Origin: Candidatus Woesearchaeota archaeon | GTDB taxonomy: Archaea > Nanobdellota > Nanobdellia > Nanobdellales > CAZNIQ01 | NCBI GenBank assembly: GCA_964573185.1 | Contig: CAZNIQ010000025.1 | Location: 1 to 10,098 of the forward strand | Reading direction: 5' to 3' | Length of the DNA stretch: 10,098 bases | Shown here: piece by piece, positions 1 to 8,495 of the stretch | How positions within the stretch are numbered: the first letter of the stretch is position 1 | Layout: each line of letters starts with the position of its first letter | Made by a program: the position numbers and the translations under genes | Notes under the pieces: model-generated | The model's database searches: none | What the model was told of the DNA's origin: nothing | Seen by the model: only the letters and a program-made list of their open reading frames with translations

Positions 1-1338
1 TATTCGGTCGTAGATTATTCCATTTTCAACATATTTTTCTTTAAATTCTTCAAATGTTTCAAAGTATTCTGAAATTCTTGTCTCTAAAATGTTTTCATAT
101 ACAGCCCTTTCAATTAATCTTTGATTTACATTTAGCATTTCCGCAATTTCTTTAACAGATTTTCTTGGATATAACCCTATTGCAACCAACTTGGCTTCTT
201 TTCTTTCTTCTCTATTTACAATTTTTCTTCTTAAATATTCTGCTACGACTAAACCTTCTCTTTGTTTTAAAGAATAAGCATATCCTATTTCTGTCAAGAA
301 TTTATAAACATCCTTTTCAGATTTCAGGTATAATCTATACATTACTTTTCCATCATATTCTTTCACTTTGTATATTTCAGATTCTATTCCAAATTCTTTC
401 AATATTTCTTTTATTTCTTCTAAGAATTTAACTAAGTTTTCTTCTAATTCTTTTACTTTTACAAATGTTAAACTTATCTGTAAAGCTGTTTTACCTTTAA
501 CTATTGGCTTTGAACCGTCTGAACCAAATAAACCTGCTAAGAAATTTGCTTTAACCCATTTTGGGCTTTCCTTTAACCATTCTGGTATTCTGAATTCTGC
601 TTTTGTTTTCTCACCAACAGGAGCTCCCAATTTAATTAATAATAATGCAAAAGCTTTTGAGGTAATCTTAATAGAATATTCTTTTCCTTCAGTTTCATAT
701 TCATAACCCCAAGGAGATTTTATCTTTATTTTTCTTTTCCTTTCATAAATTCTTGAAGCTTTAATACTTAATTTTTCTAGATCTCTTCTTAATTCTTCCA
801 ATCCTTCCTTTTCACCGTAGAACCAAACAATATATCTTTCTCTCTTCTTCCCTCTCTCTTCTGTTATTATTCTAGTTATGCATCCATCTCCAATTAGATA
901 ACCTAAAATTCTAGCAAGGATTCCAATTCTTAAATCATTTGATTTCAAAGGTAACAATTTTCTTTCTTTAAGATACTTAATTATTTGTGGGTCATATCTT
1001 TCGAAATCTTTTTCAGTTAAAATTACTTTTTCTTTTGGTTTTTCAAACTCAACACCTTCAAATGGGTAAACAGCTATATACTCTCCTACTTTTAGTTCTT
1101 TAGCTAATTTCCATCCTTCTTTTGTTAAAACTGGATGATCAAAAGATAATTCTAGTTCCCTTCCAGTTTCTGTTTTTATCTTTATTATGAACTCGTCAGA
1201 GGGTCTTTCAGATATAAATAAAATTCTGCTTCTCTTTTCCTTTGTTCTTAACTCTACTTCATTTAATAAAGGTATTAAATCTTTTATTTTAATTCTAAAA
1301 CCTAAATCCGTTAGTACTTCGGTATTTCCAGGCAAGCA
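1..1338 (-). mobile_element. Intein with LAGLIDADG homing-endonuclease domain, inserted in RtcB directly after GFDIN; C-terminal splice junction is outside the window
   Basis: After extein ...GGIGFDIN the sequence continues [14 protein letters not shown] (Cys1 codon 1338..1336, intein block A-like). This is followed by [12 protein letters not shown] (block B-like, TxxH type). Two LAGLIDADG motifs follow: [15 protein letters not shown] (about 883..903) and [14 protein letters not shown] (about 511..543). ENGIIYDRI at the window edge resembles block F. The RtcB motif would normally continue GFDINCGVR. Confidence 0.85.
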
Positions 1339-1626
1339 ATTAATATCAAAGCCTATTCCGCCAGGAGTAATTATTCCTTCATTTAAATCAAAAGCAGCAA
1401 CACCTCCAATTGGAAAACCATAACCTTGGTGTCCATCGGGCATTACGATCATCCATTTTTGAATACCCGGTAATGTAGCAACATTTCTTGCTTGTTCTAA
1501 CGTTTTATCTTCTTGCATTTTCTTAAGTAGTATTTCTGAAGCATATATTCTTGCAGGAACTCTCATTGGGGGCTCTTTTGGTATTTCCCAAATAAGATCA
1601 GAAACTTTTCTCAGCTTAATGTACAT
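1..1626 (-). CDS. rtcB: RNA-splicing ligase RtcB, N-terminal part interrupted by an intein; the rest of the gene lies beyond the left window edge
   Basis: Manual minus-strand translation from ATG 1626..1624 stays open to base 1 (542 codons). It is absent from the ORF track because it runs off the edge. The N-terminus [31 protein letters not shown]...[31 protein letters not shown]...PGGIGFDIN carries the conserved RtcB motifs (PDxHxGYGxPIGG, GGIGFDIN followed by Cys). Confidence 0.9.
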
Positions 1627-1656
1627 AAAAATAACTATGTTATAAACTTTTTAAAG
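1627..1656. promoter_or_regulatory. 30-bp divergent promoter spacer between rtcB (minus) and the methyltransferase fusion gene (plus)
   Basis: The spacer is entirely A/T-rich. The plus-strand ATAAAAATA (about 1625..1633) is centred about 27 nt upstream of ATG 1657. The minus-strand CTTTAAAAAG (complement of about 1648..1657) is centred about 26 nt upstream of ATG 1626. This spacing fits archaeal TATA boxes and leaderless transcripts. No BRE or TSS can be verified. Confidence 0.35.
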
Positions 1657-1704
1657 ATGAGGAGGGGCACACTCTCTGAGAATGATGAGAGGAGCGAGAG
1701 CCGA
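1657..1704 (+). ncRNA. Candidate box C/D sRNA-like element with degenerate terminal boxes, coincident with codons 1-16 of the downstream CDS
   Basis: Layout is ATGAGGA (C, 1 mismatch to RUGAUGA), 12 nt GGGGCACACTCT, CTGA (D', 1676..1679), GAA, TGATGA (C', 1683..1688), 12 nt GAGGAGCGAGAG, CCGA (D variant, 1701..1704). The 12/3/12 spacing is canonical and the internal boxes are perfect, but both terminal boxes are imperfect. The segment is locally GC-rich relative to its surroundings. Confidence 0.4.
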
Positions 1705-2847
1705 ATACTTCTTGTTCGTAAAATAAAAGATAAGGAAGCGTACCCACCAAAAGAAGACTCCTTCTTATTACAAAAATATGTTAAAATTTTTGCTAAAGGA
1801 ATAGTTTTGGATATTGGCACTGGTACTGGAATTCAAGCAATAACAGCAGCTTTAAAATCTAACGTCAAAAGAGTAATAGCCTCTGATATTGATAAAGATG
1901 CATTGATTATTGCAAAGTTTAATTCTGAGCTAAATGGAGTTTATGAAAAGATAATTTTTGTCCAATCCAACTTATTCGAAAGAATTCCAAAAATAAAATA
2001 TGATACTATTATTTTTAATCCCCCATATTTACCTGAGGAAGGAGTAGAGGATTATAAAACAAAACTTTGGACGGTTGGAGGTGAGGAAGGAAATGAACTT
2101 ATCTTAAGGTTTTTAGAAGAAGCTTGGAAATATTTATATAAAAATGGCATTATTCTTTTAGTTTTTTCATCTTTAAGCAATCCTAAAAAGATATTATCTT
2201 TTGCAGAAGAATTAGGATATTCATATAAGCTTTTAGAATCTAAAAGATTTTTCTTTGAAGAAATCTATGTTTACTTATTCAGCAGGTCTCATGATCATCA
2301 TCTTTCAGCACAGGAAACGTTCATCACCGAAGGTTGGCATTCTCATATTTATTTAACAGATAGAAATACTATTATAAAAAAGTTTAAAGAAAATTTAAGG
2401 TTAAACTATGAAAAGGAAAAATATTTTTTATTAAAGCTAAAGGATTTCGATTTTACTCCAAAGATTATAGATTTTGATGATAGCGAAATGAAAATAGAAA
2501 TGGAATATATTAAAGGAAAAACATTGAAGGAAGTTATTAAAAAAGGAAAGTTAACTGTCGATTTAATTAAGGATATTTTGGAGATTTGTTACACGCTAGA
2601 TAAATTGAGAATAGATAAAGGGGAGATGAATAGACCATGGGAACATATAATAATTTCAGATAGAATTGTCTTTATTGATTGGGAGAGAGCTAAAGAAACT
2701 AGAAAGCCTTCTAATGTAACAAATTTTCTACAGTTCTTACATAAAATTAAATTTATTGATATAACAAAAATAAAAGATATTTTAAGGAAATATAAGAAAA
2801 CCTATGATAGAAAGTATATTTTAGAGATAATCAGAAATCTAGGATAA
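1657..2847 (+). CDS. Fusion protein: N-terminal HemK/Mtq2-type (archaeal HemK-related) SAM-dependent methyltransferase plus C-terminal divergent Bud32/RIO-like kinase-fold domain
   Basis: The methyltransferase part (aa ~27-208) has YPPKEDSFLL, VLDIGTGTGIQAI (SAM motif I) and IIFNPPYLP (NPPY, codons 121-124 at 2017..2028), and ends ...FFFEEIYVYLFS like stand-alone archaeal HemK-related proteins. The C-terminal part (aa ~225-396) has GWHSHIYL...TIIKKF, KIEMEYIKGKTLKEVI, RIDKGEMNRPWEHIII and VFIDWE. These align by eye to the Bud32 elements (G-loop, VIIK, MEYIxG, HxDLxxxN, DFG) but with substituted catalytic residues. Confidence 0.75.
   Translation: MRRGTLSENDERSESRILLVRKIKDKEAYPPKEDSFLLQKYVKIFAKGIVLDIGTGTGIQAITAALKSNVKRVIASDIDKDALIIAKFNSELNGVYEKIIFVQSNLFERIPKIKYDTIIFNPPYLPEEGVEDYKTKLWTVGGEEGNELILRFLEEAWKYLYKNGIILLVFSSLSNPKKILSFAEELGYSYKLLESKRFFFEEIYVYLFSRSHDHHLSAQETFITEGWHSHIYLTDRNTIIKKFKENLRLNYEKEKYFLLKLKDFDFTPKIIDFDDSEMKIEMEYIKGKTLKEVIKKGKLTVDLIKDILEICYTLDKLRIDKGEMNRPWEHIIISDRIVFIDWERAKETRKPSNVTNFLQFLHKIKFIDITKIKDILRKYKKTYDRKYILEIIRNLG
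2279..2327 (-). ncRNA. Box C/D sRNA, antisense to and fully inside the fusion CDS at its domain junction
   Basis: Minus-strand layout is GTGATGA (C, 2327..2321), 12 nt ACGTTTCCTGTG, CTGA (D', 2308..2305), AAGA, TGATGA (C', 2300..2295), 12 nt TCATGAGACCTG, CTGA (D, 2282..2279). All four boxes are perfect, both guides are exactly 12 nt, and the segment is a local GC island. Confidence 0.8.
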
Positions 2848-3689: not shown

Positions 3690-3738
3690 TCAGGAGCTTA
3701 GAGGCTCATCAATAATCAGCTCCGCCTGAAATCATCAT
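3690..3738 (-). ncRNA. Box C/D sRNA (intergenic)
   Basis: Minus-strand layout is ATGATGA (C, 3738..3732), 12 nt TTTCAGGCGGAG, CTGA (D', 3719..3716), TTAT, TGATGA (C', 3711..3706), 12 nt GCCTCTAAGCTC, CTGA (D, 3693..3690). The flanks (AUUUUAA 5' and ACAAAAU 3') can form a short terminal stem. It is the GC-rich island of an otherwise A/T intergenic region. Confidence 0.85.
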
Positions 3739-4522: not shown

Positions 4523-5042
4523 AATTTAATACCTCTGGATGAAAAGTGAAACCATAAATCTCTCTGTTTTTTACCTTAAAAATCGCTGGTTCATCTTTAA
4601 CATATCCTAAAATTTCAAAATTTTCGCTTAAAACAGGATACCTCACTATTAAAAAATAAGCTCTAAATTTGCCAAAAATAGAATTTACATCATAAACTCC
4701 AATAAATCCTTTTTTCTTTAGTTTACCCCCAAATGTTAATGCTATTATTTGAGATCCTGCACCTACTCCTATCACTTTCTTATTCGTATTTTTAATCCAT
4801 TTGAACTTATCTAAATAGTTTAAATATTCAAAATCTTTAATAGCAGTTCCAGATAAAATAATTACATCCTCTTTCGGTTCTTTCTCCAATTCTTTATAAT
4901 GAATTACTTTAACATTTCCTTTTTCTTTAAAAATGTCTACTAAAGGTCCTACAAACTCTTCTTCATGCAACTTATATTTACATAAAGAAATTATCAGGAT
5001 CGAGAGTCCCTCATCATTTTCAGAGTGGGATAACGTCATCAT
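4485..5042 (-). CDS. Class-I glutamine amidotransferase-like protein (GuaA subunit A-like fold) lacking the nucleophile cysteine
   Basis: ILIISL (beta-1-like), VIILSG, VIGVGAGSQIIALTFGG in place of the GxCxGxQ nucleophile elbow, and YGFTFHPEV (His/Glu of the triad). The only canonical in-frame starts are ATG 5042 or 5039, both inside the C box of the overlapping sRNA. Confidence 0.65.
   Translation of the reverse strand: MMTLSHSENDEGLSILIISLCKYKLHEEEFVGPLVDIFKEKGNVKVIHYKELEKEPKEDVIILSGTAIKDFEYLNYLDKFKWIKNTNKKVIGVGAGSQIIALTFGGKLKKKGFIGVYDVNSIFGKFRAYFLIVRYPVLSENFEILGYVKDEPAIFKVKNREIYGFTFHPEVLNSKLLLEILSQNF
4994..5042 (-). ncRNA. Box C/D sRNA coincident with codons 1-17 of the GATase-like CDS
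   Basis: Minus-strand layout is ATGATGA (C, 5042..5036), 12 nt CGTTATCCCACT, CTGA (D', 5023..5020), AAA, TGATGA (C', 5016..5011), 13 nt GGGACTCTCGATC, CTGA (D, 4997..4994). All four boxes are perfect and the segment is a GC-rich island. A TATA-like ATTTTTAAA (complement of 5067..5075) sits about 29 nt upstream of the C box. Confidence 0.8.
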
Positions 5043-5080: not shown

Positions 5081-5116
5081 AGCCCCGTCGTCTAGCGGCC
5101 AAGGATGCGGGGTACC

Positions 5117-6169
5117 ATGGCGGCCGACCCCTTCCAACTTCTTTATTCCACAGTTAAACATTTGGAAAAGGAAATGAATGTTTCTTTAGATGAAGTAGCT
5201 GTCACCTATCCTCATTCAGAGATTTCGCGAGAATTTGTTAGAAGACTGCGTAGAAGATTCAAAATCAGAATAAAAGGAGAAGGAACTTTCCATACAACTG
5301 GAAGATTATTAGGATTGGCATTAACAGATGCAAATTTAAGATCTGCATTAAGTGGCTACTTTATAGTTGGAACGACCAGAATGGAAACATTTGAAATTTA
5401 TAAGAAACTTTTTAAAGACATAGTTCTTTTTACAGATTATCCTAGATATATAAATGGCAATCCATTATTACCTCTTTACATGTTGTCTAAAGACAAAACC
5501 TCTGTTAAAAAAGAAAGTATAAATAAGCTTAAAATGCTGCTAACGGACAATTTAGATATTTTTGAGGAAAAAGGGATCTTTGATTTTATAGCAAGCTGTG
5601 TAGATTTTGACGGAGAAGTACATGGCAGAACATTTGTTATTTATAGAAAAGAAAATAGCAGGAAGGGGCAAATATTATCTAAACTTTTCTTATTTTTTGA
5701 AGAAATTGGCATATTAAAAATCACAAATTATGGTTTAAATACATGGAAAGATAGAATATCATTCAAAGTTTCTGCAAAGTATATACGAAATATAATGTTA
5801 TTGCATCCTAATAAAAGGATTGCTTCAGATATTTCAATTCCAAGTATAGTTTTTACAAAAGAAGAACTAGAATGCCTTAGGAAATACCTAAAAGAGGTTA
5901 AATTAATTAAACAAAAGTATGCATACAAATATCTTCTATTATTTAATGATATAAAGGCGGCACAACTGTTAAAAGATAAAGGATTTAAAATAAGTATCTT
6001 TGGTAAAAATATTGCAAAATATTTTGGAGATAAAGCATTACTTCTAGCAATTTTAGATATTATCGGATTTAATATAAAGAACCTGATTCCTCCGTATAAA
6101 TATCCGAGTAGAATATACGAACTTTTGGATAAAGTTGAATATATAAAAAGCCATATAAAGGTTAAATGA
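5117..6169 (+). CDS. Intron-encoded two-motif LAGLIDADG homing endonuclease with a C-terminal extension of about 140 aa
   Basis: Motif 1 is RLLGLALTDANL (LLGLALTDA at 5306..5332). Motif 2 is FDFIASCVDFDGEV (IASCVDFDG at 5588..5614). They lie about 95 aa apart, as in single-chain LAGLIDADG enzymes. The start is set at ATG 5117, the first ATG inside the intron. The track start 5105 lies in the tRNA exon, and ATG 5174 is an alternative. Stop TGA is at 6167..6169, 10 nt before the clamp. Confidence 0.8.
   Translation: MAADPFQLLYSTVKHLEKEMNVSLDEVAVTYPHSEISREFVRRLRRRFKIRIKGEGTFHTTGRLLGLALTDANLRSALSGYFIVGTTRMETFEIYKKLFKDIVLFTDYPRYINGNPLLPLYMLSKDKTSVKKESINKLKMLLTDNLDIFEEKGIFDFIASCVDFDGEVHGRTFVIYRKENSRKGQILSKLFLFFEEIGILKITNYGLNTWKDRISFKVSAKYIRNIMLLHPNKRIASDISIPSIVFTKEELECLRKYLKEVKLIKQKYAYKYLLLFNDIKAAQLLKDKGFKISIFGKNIAKYFGDKALLLAILDIIGFNIKNLIPPYKYPSRIYELLDKVEYIKSHIKVK
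5119..5133 (+). repeat. 5' arm of a 15-bp perfect inverted repeat (GC clamp) closing the intron
   Basis: GGCGGCCGACCCCTT is the exact reverse complement of 6179..6193. Confidence 0.95.
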
Positions 6170-6178
6170 AAAAATGTA

Positions 6179-6193
6179 AAGGGGTCGGCCGCC
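6179..6193 (+). repeat. 3' arm of a 15-bp perfect inverted repeat (GC clamp) closing the intron
   Basis: AAGGGGTCGGCCGCC is the exact reverse complement of 5119..5133. Confidence 0.95.
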
Positions 6194-6239
6194 GGGCCCG
6201 AGTTTGGTCCCCGTGACCGGGGTTCGAATCCCCGCGGGG

Positions 6240-8495
6240 CTAGTAAACTTTAACTTCTATTTCAGTTCCCTTTCTATATAAATAATAGCTTTTTGCAGCA
6301 GCTTCTTTAAAAATTTCATCATGTGTACAAATAATTAATTGGAAATTCTCCAAAGATTTTAAAGTTTCTGCAAGTTTCCTTCTTATTCTTTCATCTAAAG
6401 ATTCTGTAGGCTCATCTAATAATAGAAAGCCTATATTTTTTGATAACAGATTTATTAATGCAAATCTAAAAGCCAAGTCTAAAGCTACTATTTGGCCTCC
6501 AGATAGGGACGCTTCTTCCAAAGGTAAAACAACATCCCTCTCACCAATTTTCTTCTTTACATATATTTTATAAACAAAATCTTTCCTTCCCCTTTCAACT
6601 CTTATCTCAACACTTTCAATATCATCATATATGTAAATCCTCTTAAACCAATAATTTAGATAAATAGTTAATCTTTTGGCAACTTCATCTCTTACCCTTA
6701 TCTTTATTTTTTGGAATACAGTAGCAAGCTTGCTTATTATATTTACAAATTTTTCTAACTCTTCGATGTACTTCTTAAGTTTTTCAACATATTCTTTCTT
6801 CTCTTTTAAGTATTTCAAGAATTTTATATCTATTTTAGGTAAGCTTTCCAGTTCATCTTCAACTTCCTTTATTTTCCTTTCTATTTCTTCTAATTCTATA
6901 CCATACCTCTTAACGATTTCTTTTAATTCCTCTAACTCTTTTATTTTTTCTTTCATCTTAAAGATCCTATATCTTTGAATTTCCAAATCTCTTAACTCTT
7001 TTTCTAATCTACTTTTAGTTTCTTCCAATTCTTTTACACTTCTCTCAATCTCTTTCTTCTTCAAATAACTTAAAGCAGAATATACTTTTTCATAGATCAA
7101 AATTTCGTTTAATTCTTTCTCAAAGTTTTCCTTTATTCTTTCTAATTCTTCTATTTTATCAGTACCAAATTCCTCTAAGGCAAAGTTTAAATAATATTTT
7201 CTTTTATTATAAATCTCTCTCTTCTCTTCTAACTCTTTTTCTAAATTTAAGATTTCTCTTTTTATTTGTAAATCTCTTTTTTTCAACTCTTCTAACTCTT
7301 TTACCTTTTCTTCTAATAATTTTTTTGGATTTTCAATTCTTGAACCACACACAGGACATTTCGGTTCCTTTACTTTTTCTAGTATCTCTATGAGTTTTTG
7401 AATATCCTTTATCTTAACATTTAATTCCCTCAACTCTTCTTTTTTCTTTTCTAATTTTTCTTCTAATTCTTTTATATCCTCTTCTTTTATATTCGGTAGC
7501 TCTTTCAAATTCTTTATAATTCTCTCTATTTGTTTTATTTTATTTAAAATTAAGGACTTTCTTGAGGTATCTACCTTTATTTTCTTTACCGTTTCCTCCA
7601 GCTCTTCTATTTTCTTATCTAAGAACTCTTTAAAATCATCCGTTAAAATATCATACTTTGCACTTTCTTCTTTCAATTCTAATATTATATTTTCAACTTC
7701 TCTTAACTCTTCTTTAATTTTACTATATTTTTCATTAATTTCTTTTTCTTTTTTCAACAACTCCTCATCGATTTCCCTCTTCAAATATTTATATCTTATA
7801 TTTATCCTTTCTAACTCTTTTAATTGTCTCTCCAATTCTTCCCTTCTTTTAGCTAATTCTTCTAGTTTTCCAATATCCTCTCCAAAGTACTTTTGTATAG
7901 AAGCGCTTTCTCTTGTATATTCGGATTTTGCTCTTAGTAATTCTTTTCTTAAATCCTCTAGAGCTTTGCTTAAGGTATCTGCAATCTCTGTAAATTTTTT
8001 CAAATCTAATAATTCTTCTAATTCTTCTGAAAAAGTTTTCTTTCCAGAGCCTAAAACCAAAGATCCTAAAGTTCTTTGTCTAATGAATATAACATTTACA
8101 GCCTTATCTAAATCTTTTACTTTGAGTAAATTTTCTAATACATATCTAGTTATAGTTTCATTTCCAGATGCAACCACTTTTCCATTTTTTCTTATAATAC
8201 CATTTCCAGAAGGAACTTCTCTTATAATTTCATATATATTTTCATTATCCTGTAAAACAACTGTAACTTTTCCTAGAGAACTTCCTCTTCTGACTAAATT
8301 TTCTTTTCTTCCACCTTTTTCGTAAGAAGTTAAAGCTTGAGAGCCAAATAAAGCATAAATTATACCTAATAATATAGATGTTTTACCGGTTCCGTTTTCG
8401 CCTAAAATCAAAGTAACTTTATCATCAAAATCTATTGCTAAGTTTTTATGAATTCTAAAATTTTCTAATACTACTTTTTTTAATTTAACTACCAT
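6240..8495 (-). CDS. rad50: DNA double-strand break repair ATPase Rad50
   Basis: Walker A GENGTGKTS is near the N-terminus. A long E/K-rich coiled coil carries a central zinc hook, KEPKCPVCGS (CPVC at 7358..7347, aa 380-383). The ABC signature SLSGGQ, Walker B LLLDEPT and H-loop ICTHD are at the C-terminus. The start overlaps the mre11 stop by 7 nt. Confidence 0.93.
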   Translation of the reverse strand: MVVKLKKVVLENFRIHKNLAIDFDDKVTLILGENGTGKTSILLGIIYALFGSQALTSYEKGGRKENLVRRGSSLGKVTVVLQDNENIYEIIREVPSGNGIIRKNGKVVASGNETITRYVLENLLKVKDLDKAVNVIFIRQRTLGSLVLGSGKKTFSEELEELLDLKKFTEIADTLSKALEDLRKELLRAKSEYTRESASIQKYFGEDIGKLEELAKRREELERQLKELERINIRYKYLKREIDEELLKKEKEINEKYSKIKEELREVENIILELKEESAKYDILTDDFKEFLDKKIEELEETVKKIKVDTSRKSLILNKIKQIERIIKNLKELPNIKEEDIKELEEKLEKKKEELRELNVKIKDIQKLIEILEKVKEPKCPVCGSRIENPKKLLEEKVKELEELKKRDLQIKREILNLEKELEEKREIYNKRKYYLNFALEEFGTDKIEELERIKENFEKELNEILIYEKVYSALSYLKKKEIERSVKELEETKSRLEKELRDLEIQRYRIFKMKEKIKELEELKEIVKRYGIELEEIERKIKEVEDELESLPKIDIKFLKYLKEKKEYVEKLKKYIEELEKFVNIISKLATVFQKIKIRVRDEVAKRLTIYLNYWFKRIYIYDDIESVEIRVERGRKDFVYKIYVKKKIGERDVVLPLEEASLSGGQIVALDLAFRFALINLLSKNIGFLLLDEPTESLDERIRRKLAETLKSLENFQLIICTHDEIFKEAAAKSYYLYRKGTEIEVKVY

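Follow-up and report, generated by a model that had tools for sequence, protein, structure and literature searches.

A box C/D sRNA-like element forms the start codon and first codons of a methyltransferase-kinase gene in a small archaeal genome

Introduction

Overlap of box C/D sRNAs with the 5' ends of genes is already documented, and the case described here is a tidy version of this known overlap. In Nanoarchaeum equitans most sRNAs overlap mRNAs, some adjoin methyltransferase genes, and in several the 5' terminus lies immediately at box C (PMC3491384). Those with UGAAGA and CAGA boxes (Randau 2012, PMC3491384) resemble the element at positions 1657–1704 of the stretch analysed here in their four-box layout of ~48–50 nt, their 12-nt guides, and a nucleotide other than U on both sides of the k-turn pair 3b·3n. 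They differ in that they have been shown to be expressed, mostly have predicted rRNA targets, and carry an A·A pair, whereas the element at 1657–1704 carries G-C, is wholly translated, and has a box C that is the start codon.

The “category 1” C/D sRNAs of Pyrobaculum overlap ORFs at their 5' ends and in the sense direction (Lui et al. 2018, PMC6009581; see also Tripp et al. 2017, which is cited in that paper). As in our case, sRNA and mRNA lie on one strand and probably share one promoter, the guides that overlap the ORF are mostly without targets, and the same two fates have been proposed, excision of the sRNA or a block of initiation by L7Ae (PMC6009581). The Pyrobaculum sRNAs are only partly coding, with the start codon in box C' or in the D guide, whereas at 1657–1704 the start codon belongs to box C itself and the coding sequence takes in all four boxes and both guides. 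It is this all-coding layout with a box C start that creates the problem of an in-frame UGA at box D, which is resolved here by the substitution at 3n.

Translational control that depends on L7Ae and acts through k-turns in mRNAs has been described in Sulfolobus (PMC5539422). Such leader k-turns (Daume et al. 2017, PMC5539422; Huang et al. 2019, PMC6298567) share with our element a k-turn at the initiation region and a predicted protein-dependent folding. They are single k-turns in 5' UTRs beside a Shine-Dalgarno sequence, unlike 1657–1704, which represents a complete C/D sRNA on a probably leaderless mRNA. A further likeness is to the 5' stem-loop of U4 snRNA (McPhee et al. 2014, PMC4382518), in which the bulged strand also has GA and then G, the other strand has C and then GA, and folding depends on a protein of the L7Ae family (PMC4382518). 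This is a structural likeness only and not homology; archaea have neither the U4 context nor a Prp31-type partner.

The element and the gene that it opens

The window, by which we mean the whole 10,098-nt stretch of DNA that was analysed, is contig C25 of a 593-kb archaeal assembly (37 contigs, 30% G+C), the relatives of which within the genome collection are small-genome nanoarchaeal lineages. An earlier note on this DNA had described a four-box C/D-like pattern at 1657–1704 on the plus strand, and the sequence reads exactly as given there: ATGAGGA (1657–1663), 12 nt, CTGA, GAA, TGATGA, 12 nt and CCGA (1701–1704). The features of the locus are as follows.

1625–1634 (+): A/T-rich TATA-like box ATAAAAATAA, centred ~27–28 nt upstream of the ATG and adjoining the start codon of the divergent RtcB gene (1624–1626, minus strand)
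1657–2847 (+): ORF of 396 aa, a HemK2/MTQ2-family methyltransferase (~residues 25–207) followed by a Bud32/RIO-like kinase domain (~223–390)
1657–1663 (+): AUGAGGA, a variant box C with the start codon AUG; its first GA is assigned to the sheared pairs, and its fifth letter, G, to k-turn position 3b
1664–1675 (+): D' guide GGGGCACACTCT, codons 3–7
1676–1679 (+): box D', canonical CUGA, the same in the orthologous locus L051 (see below), where the codon that overlaps it encodes Ala in place of Ser
1680–1682 (+): GAA, the 3-nt linker of the C'/D' k-loop
1683–1688 (+): box C', canonical UGAUGA, the same in L051
1689–1700 (+): D guide GAGGAGCGAGAG, codons 11–15
1701–1704 (+): CCGA, a variant box D whose second letter, C, is k-turn position 3n; the box is read as the Arg codon CGA

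The peptide encoded from the ATG at 1657 is MRRGTLSENDERSESR. Its SENDE stretch, which had been put forward as a supporting footprint, is the mere translation of CTGA-RAA-TGATGA-G in this frame and hence provides no independent evidence. ViennaRNA predicts no competing structure for the element, which folds no better than shuffled controls (z = -0.34); this is expected for a k-turn RNA and therefore uninformative.

The ORF is matched by Pfam MTS (E 4.5e-16) and NCBIfam TIGR00537 (119 bits vs a cut-off of 87), and its NCBIfam Bud32 match lies below the cut-off of that model; fusions of methyltransferase and kinase are common in DPANN archaea according to a protein search. The element is the sole source of a start codon, as had been proposed, there being no other in-frame ATG, GTG or TTG in the 39 open codons upstream of 1657 nor before the conserved YPP motif. 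As to the N-terminal extension of about 17 aa that the same note had claimed, residues are indeed added, but the size depends on the homologue chosen for comparison. A Nanoarchaeum-like homologue begins 3 residues ahead of the Y of the motif. Homologues from the neighbouring family begin with MDFEYVKHNDLIIYYKIYDLECYPP, a 22-residue extension of which the last 16 residues align with residues 14–29 of the present protein; the element contributes ~13 unalignable residues in place of ~7 ancestral ones, a net gain of ~6 compared with this family.

The AlphaFold model of the protein has a mean pLDDT of 89, with residues 11–20 at ~62 and values below 50 at residues 1–9 and 213–217. Since residues 1–9 fall below 50, the N-terminal peptide is predicted to be disordered, and constraint on it at the protein level should be weak.

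A family of C/D sRNAs in the genome

A regular-expression scan of the genome found 46 strictly canonical C/D matches (45 after collapsing). A relaxed scan, in which D' and C' had to be perfect and each terminal box was allowed at most one mismatch, found 57 elements, against a mean of 0.03 expected by chance genome-wide, as estimated from 60 first-order Markov simulations of the genome. All but two of these (55/57) differ from the consensus, if at all, solely at box C position 5 (3b) or box D position 2 (3n), and the 12/3/12 spacing found at 1657–1704 is the commonest architecture (26/57). Its linker and guides also agree with what is usual for archaeal C/D sRNAs, a linker of 3–6 nt and guides of ~12 nt. 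About 9 of the 57 donate a start codon, via box C or box C'. With such numbers, the contention that the arrangement recurs and is not due to chance holds good. Fibrillarin, Nop5 and L7Ae are encoded in the genome, all above Pfam cut-offs.

Three other canonical sRNAs are present in the window, all on the minus strand (2279–2327, 3690–3738 and 4994–5042). In an Rfam scan of the window (E <= 1) these reached 21–30 bits, below the gathering threshold, and there was no match at 1657–1704. An HMM built from the genome's 45 canonical sRNAs matches the element partially (10.8 bits, E 0.18); as elements of the A·A type score 9.5–12 bits with the same model, it does not discriminate.

That the element is a chance resemblance in A/G-rich coding sequence is extremely improbable. 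The N-terminal coding sequence is purine-rich and the element lies under all profile thresholds, as such an explanation would have it, but only 0.03 matches are expected in the entire genome, and the same boxes with the same spacing occur at the same start codon in the sister species.

In this genome (G000) there are also sRNAs that directly abut tRNA genes (C7:15588–15721, C26:7861–7984, C26:2897–3036 and C3:33808–33962), resembling the dicistronic tRNA-sRNA units of N. equitans.

The variant letters of the terminal boxes

The sheared pairs of a C/D k-turn are made between the GA of box D and the first GA of box C, and the next position, 3b·3n, consists of the U of UGAUGA opposite the U of CUGA. 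The pairing within the element was assigned from this established geometry, using the nomenclature (3b, 3n) of PMC4382518. In box C the R, the U and the first GA are unchanged, likewise the G whose pairing partner is the box D C; this box deviates solely at 3b, from U to G. Box D retains its C and its GA and deviates at 3n alone, facing the change in box C and giving a G-C pair. So assigned, the two non-consensus letters are predicted to be the facing 3b·3n nucleotides, changed from U·U to G-C.

Variants of the terminal boxes were counted in 21 genomes of the order. Both 3b and 3n are changed in 77 elements, which comprise 74 with A·A, 2 with A·G and a single one with G-C, namely 1657–1704; a further 29 combine a variant box C with a canonical box D, and no element in the 21 genomes has box D changed while its box C is canonical. 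The G-C state is thus unique among 106 variant-box elements matched across this set. Within orthologous sRNA families that have conserved guides, the pair switches among the states A·A, A·U, G·U and A·G, from which we conclude that 3b·3n is labile in working sRNAs. The UGAAGA/CAGA form occurs in the RNA-seq-validated N. equitans sRNAs 8, 9, 14, 16, 17, 19, 21 and 23, including the most abundant one (PMC3491384, supplement 2). Pipelines that annotate by consensus boxes would miss real sRNAs of this order with variant 3b·3n, and would mis-call or question start codons such as the present one.

The terminal boxes had been regarded as decayed. We do not share this view, as the changes concern the paired nucleotides 3b and 3n, the A·A of the sister species is the standard variant of the order, and the box D change is forced by the reading frame. 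In the k-turn of human U4 snRNA, 3b·3n is G-C; this k-turn is unfolded in metal ions and folds upon binding of L7Ae, like a box C/D k-turn, and a Watson-Crick pair at 3b·3n predicts that ions do not induce folding (PMC4382518). By analogy with U4, the G-C pair at 1657–1704 appears compatible with protein binding.

Reading-frame constraint and other sRNAs that donate start codons

With 12/3/12 spacing, box D is read as xxC-TGA in the frame that starts at a box C ATG. The box C frame stops precisely at the box D TGA in 20 of the 57 elements, leaving a mini-ORF of 15 codons. At 1657–1704 a canonical CUGA would likewise place an in-frame UGA at codon 16, so that a nucleotide other than U in box D is obligatory for the gene to be read through.

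Three escape routes from this stop codon are found among the elements of the genome whose box C starts a long ORF. One is a D spacer of 13 nt, seen at the GATase start (4994–5042) and at a UDG-family gene (C7:17050); another is a 5-nt linker (C1:13997); and the third is a non-U in box D, seen at 1657–1704 and at C15:12963. The latter element (UGAAGA/CAGA, also 12/3/12) opens a gene for a GCD14-type tRNA methyltransferase with the peptide MKKNSATENDEK. The canonical sRNA at 4994–5042 (minus strand) opens the GATase ORF with the peptide MMTLSHSENDEG. This element, referred to by its end at 5042, had been likened to 1657–1704; it does open an ORF as well, but its spacing is 12/3/13 and not 12/3/12, and it is the 13-nt D spacer that shifts the box D TGA out of frame.

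The GATase of the sister genome starts MYITIISLCKY, with neither the sRNA-encoded extension nor an sRNA upstream, and the overlap at 4994–5042 is for this reason considered specific to the genome studied here. A metagenomic GATase homologue with 76% identity starts in the C' box (AUGAGGA) of another sRNA. Five C/D sRNAs lie within ~750 nt around this gene (locus L099, a marine metagenome contig, 1092–1835). Just upstream of the orthologous methyltransferase gene, genus g4 of the neighbouring family has an A·A sRNA that is unrelated, and in genome G009 the box C' of the upstream sRNA is the methyltransferase start codon. As these methyltransferase and GATase genes show, sRNAs at gene starts turn over. 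Identity of the g4 sRNAs (G009, G016 and G017) with the element at 1657–1704 was considered and rejected, their guides being unrelated.

Comparison with the sister species

The protein search yielded one orthologous protein, P0004, at 87% identity (locus L051, NCBI assembly GCA_054017035.1). Its gene starts with ATGAAGA, 12 nt, CTGA, AAA, TGATGA, 12 nt and CAGA, and box D is read there as Arg (AGA). Beyond this orthologue no protein in the search exceeded 57% identity, and a scan of metagenomes for further orthologues gave no close relative. In the 57%-identical relative (L097), methyltransferase and kinase are separate overlapping genes, and the start is without an sRNA. As no further close relatives were found and L097 lacks the sRNA, the arrangement with an sRNA at the start appears, by this comparison, to be specific to the present lineage.

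The earlier note had advised aligning orthologous loci. In the one alignment available, with L051, the boxes proved to be conserved and the guides did not. The box letters are identical at 19 of 21 positions, as opposed to 13 of 27 at the interspersed non-box positions of the same 48 nt (Fisher P = 0.002, or 0.01 without the ATG), statistics which are those of a single orthologue pair. Both differences in the boxes concern 3b and 3n (A·A in L051, G-C here). The CU of box D' is retained despite a change from Ser to Ala (TCT to GCT), as is the C of box D despite a change from Ser to Phe (AGC to TTC); that box letters are kept across two residue changes favours a constraint at the nucleotide level, as far as one pair of sequences can tell. 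Guide identity is 3/12 for D' and 8/12 for D, i.e. 11/24 in total, as compared with 89/96 guide positions kept in four other sRNAs that are common to both genomes (P = 1e-6).

We favour, with somewhat better than even confidence, that 1657–1704 is a genuine C/D sRNA gene which has been co-opted as start and leader of a probably leaderless methyltransferase-kinase mRNA, with k-turn boxes that are still under selection and a guide function that has been eroded or retargeted. Of the two options left open previously, a functional non-canonical k-turn or a fossil, it is the k-turn that we prefer on account of the paired 3b·3n change and the 19 of 21 conserved box letters, the fossil being the less likely of the two.

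A fossil, in the sense of a former C/D sRNA captured as coding leader and start codon with no role left at the RNA level, we consider rather unlikely, though well worth weighing. The boxes would then look intact through recent divergence together with protein-level selection on the start codon and a few residues, and indeed the start codon and the conserved E-N-D-E residues can account for some of the conservation seen in the boxes. The non-conserved guides, diverging far faster than those of the four shared sRNAs, are what a dead guide RNA would look like. Consistent with this, the element has no Rfam match, its box D change is synonymous (AGA/CGA, Arg) and its box C change conservative (Lys/Arg), such that both could be neutral, and among 17 Pyrobaculum guides overlapping ORF 5' ends just 2 (12%) have a predicted target (PMC6009581). 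On the other hand, a fossil does not readily account for the excess of conservation in boxes over the non-box letters between them, for box nucleotides that outlast two residue changes, or for the fact that the only two box differences fall on mutually pairing nucleotides, converting A·A to a Watson-Crick pair; also, the encoded peptide is predicted to be disordered, and only weak protein constraint would be expected.

Targets of the guides

As rRNA is absent from the assembly, targets were sought on the 16S and 23S rRNAs of four related genomes, the criterion being at least 9 consecutive Watson-Crick pairs that cover nucleotide 5 upstream of box D or D' (PMC4644070). By this criterion the D guide of the sister, GAAGAGCGGGTT, has a target on 16S: it forms 11/11 consecutive Watson-Crick pairs with the 16S rRNA of G001, covering position +5 (shuffle P ~0.007), and 10 with those of G002 and G004 at a conserved site. 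Because of these 11 consecutive pairs with 16S, the ancestor of the element was, in all probability, a real guide.

The D guide of 1657–1704 keeps seven distal pairs on the sister's 16S site and is mismatched at the first, second and fourth nucleotides upstream of box D; no target by the above criterion was found for it on the rRNAs of the four relatives. Loss of a 16S match that the sister keeps is also in line with a fossil. The D' guide forms 10 consecutive Watson-Crick pairs plus one G·U with 23S rRNA, that of the N. equitans-like G002 only (shuffle P ~0.03); the hairpin that contains this site is different in the rRNAs of the other three relatives. The use of foreign rRNA makes for low sensitivity, as only 11 of 90 canonical guides reach the same score vs 3 of 90 reversed-guide controls. 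A search of 39 tRNAs (aragorn) for targets, and of the whole genome for complements of both guides, gave nothing beyond the element's own antisense strand. Judged from these pairings, it appears to be the guide complementarity that is eroded, and not the boxes. In the rRNA of this lineage the 16S site is expected to read AACCCGCUCU, and the 23S site of a live D' guide would read GGAGUGUGCCC.

Related genomes were also searched for an sRNA with the sister's 16S guide. The sole near-match (G018) falls within the coding sequence of a chaperonin-like protein and was dismissed as fortuitous.

Transcription start and possible regulatory role

The intergenic spacer to the divergent RtcB gene comprises 30 nt, and the sister locus L051 has a similar A/T-rich block, ATAAATAAAA, at the same distance as the TATA-like box at 1625–1634. 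The short spacer, and the A/T-rich box that both species have ~27 nt ahead of the ATG, make a leaderless start plausible, and we infer from this arrangement a promoter role of the A/T-rich box and a leaderless transcript that begins at box C.

The RtcB RNA-ligase ORF (window 1–1626, minus strand) carries an intein with a LAGLIDADG domain. In the sister genome the equivalent divergent position is occupied by a gene for RNA 3'-phosphate cyclase (RTC).

For the co-opted sRNA that we favour, we infer expression, protein binding, a leaderless start and a regulatory consequence in the following way. The element, which lies wholly inside the fusion gene, would supply the start codon, the first 16 codons and presumably also the transcription start, and the leaderless transcript would start at or beside box C. 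L7Ae could then bind the C/D k-turn and the C'/D' k-loop, to be joined by Nop5 and fibrillarin. The resulting RNP would either block the 5'-terminal AUG or shield the 48 nt while the remaining transcript is degraded, so that each transcript would become either an mRNA or a small RNA.

A narrower possibility is that the k-turn and k-loop are only an L7Ae site on the leaderless mRNA 5' end that tunes translation, with no functional free guide RNA being made. L7Ae represses translation via k-turns in the 5' leaders or just past the start codons of archaeal mRNAs (PMC5539422). According to Huang et al. (PMC6298567), regulatory k-turns should fold only when protein-bound, and protein-dependent folding is a property of a Watson-Crick 3b·3n pair (PMC4382518). 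Guides free to drift with boxes held in place is also the pattern that is seen. We nevertheless regard this possibility as quite improbable: the full four-box 12/3/12 architecture is kept although one k-turn suffices for L7Ae, the sister keeps a perfect 16S guide, which suggests a role in trans at least there, and nothing ties the methyltransferase-kinase to L7Ae dosage.

The most far-reaching form of the co-opted-sRNA reading, which we put forward as a doubtful proposal, is that sRNP assembly on the leaderless mRNA 5' end switches between translation of the methyltransferase-kinase and release of the small RNA, and that read-through of box D selected a compensated, U4-like G-C k-turn. If this were true, constraints of coding and of RNP folding would be met at once by covariation within a k-turn, and exonisation of mobile C/D sRNAs would be a means of remodelling gene starts and gene fusions in reduced archaeal genomes.

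The locus would be an extreme of gene overlap in a 0.6-Mb genome, where a complete guide-RNA gene provides the promoter-proximal start, the start codon and the N-terminal peptide of an enzyme, and where a single opposed pair of k-turn nucleotides may reconcile the avoidance of a stop codon with the fold of an RNA. It also offers a concrete case for the idea, arising from Pyrobaculum and Sulfolobus, that binding of an sRNP or of L7Ae competes with initiation of translation.

Other RNA genes in the window

The sRNA at 2279–2327 (minus strand) is fully canonical and lies antisense inside ORF 1657–2847. It covers residues 208–224 of the plus-strand protein, the low-confidence linker between methyltransferase and kinase (pLDDT <50 at 213–217), and its guides are 24/24 identical in the sister genome. 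As the 57%-identical relative has separate overlapping genes without this sRNA, the methyltransferase-kinase fusion may have arisen by read-through across the sRNA gene. The sRNA at 3690–3738 (minus strand) is a canonical intergenic C/D sRNA. In the sister genome the orthologous sRNA overlaps the methyltransferase-kinase gene antisense at its 3' end, and the extra C-terminal tail of the sister protein, EDHHSSASPEIIIK, is encoded by it.

The window also contains a split or giant-intron tRNA (5081–5130 and 6182–6241, plus strand), which encloses an ORF at 5117–6169. The product of this intervening ORF (P0246, 350 aa) has no Pfam or NCBIfam match and no relative in 40 related genomes, and an intact tRNA-Gln(UUG) was not found in the genome by aragorn. 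The 5' part comprises the acceptor strand AGCCCCG, the D arm and the 5' strand of the anticodon stem, followed by GGCGGCCGACCCC. The exact reverse complement, GGGGTCGGCCGCC, occurs ~1.08 kb downstream on the same strand and is followed by the anticodon loop xUUUGGU, the T arm and the 3' acceptor strand. When joined, the two halves give a tRNA-Gln(UUG) with A1-U72.
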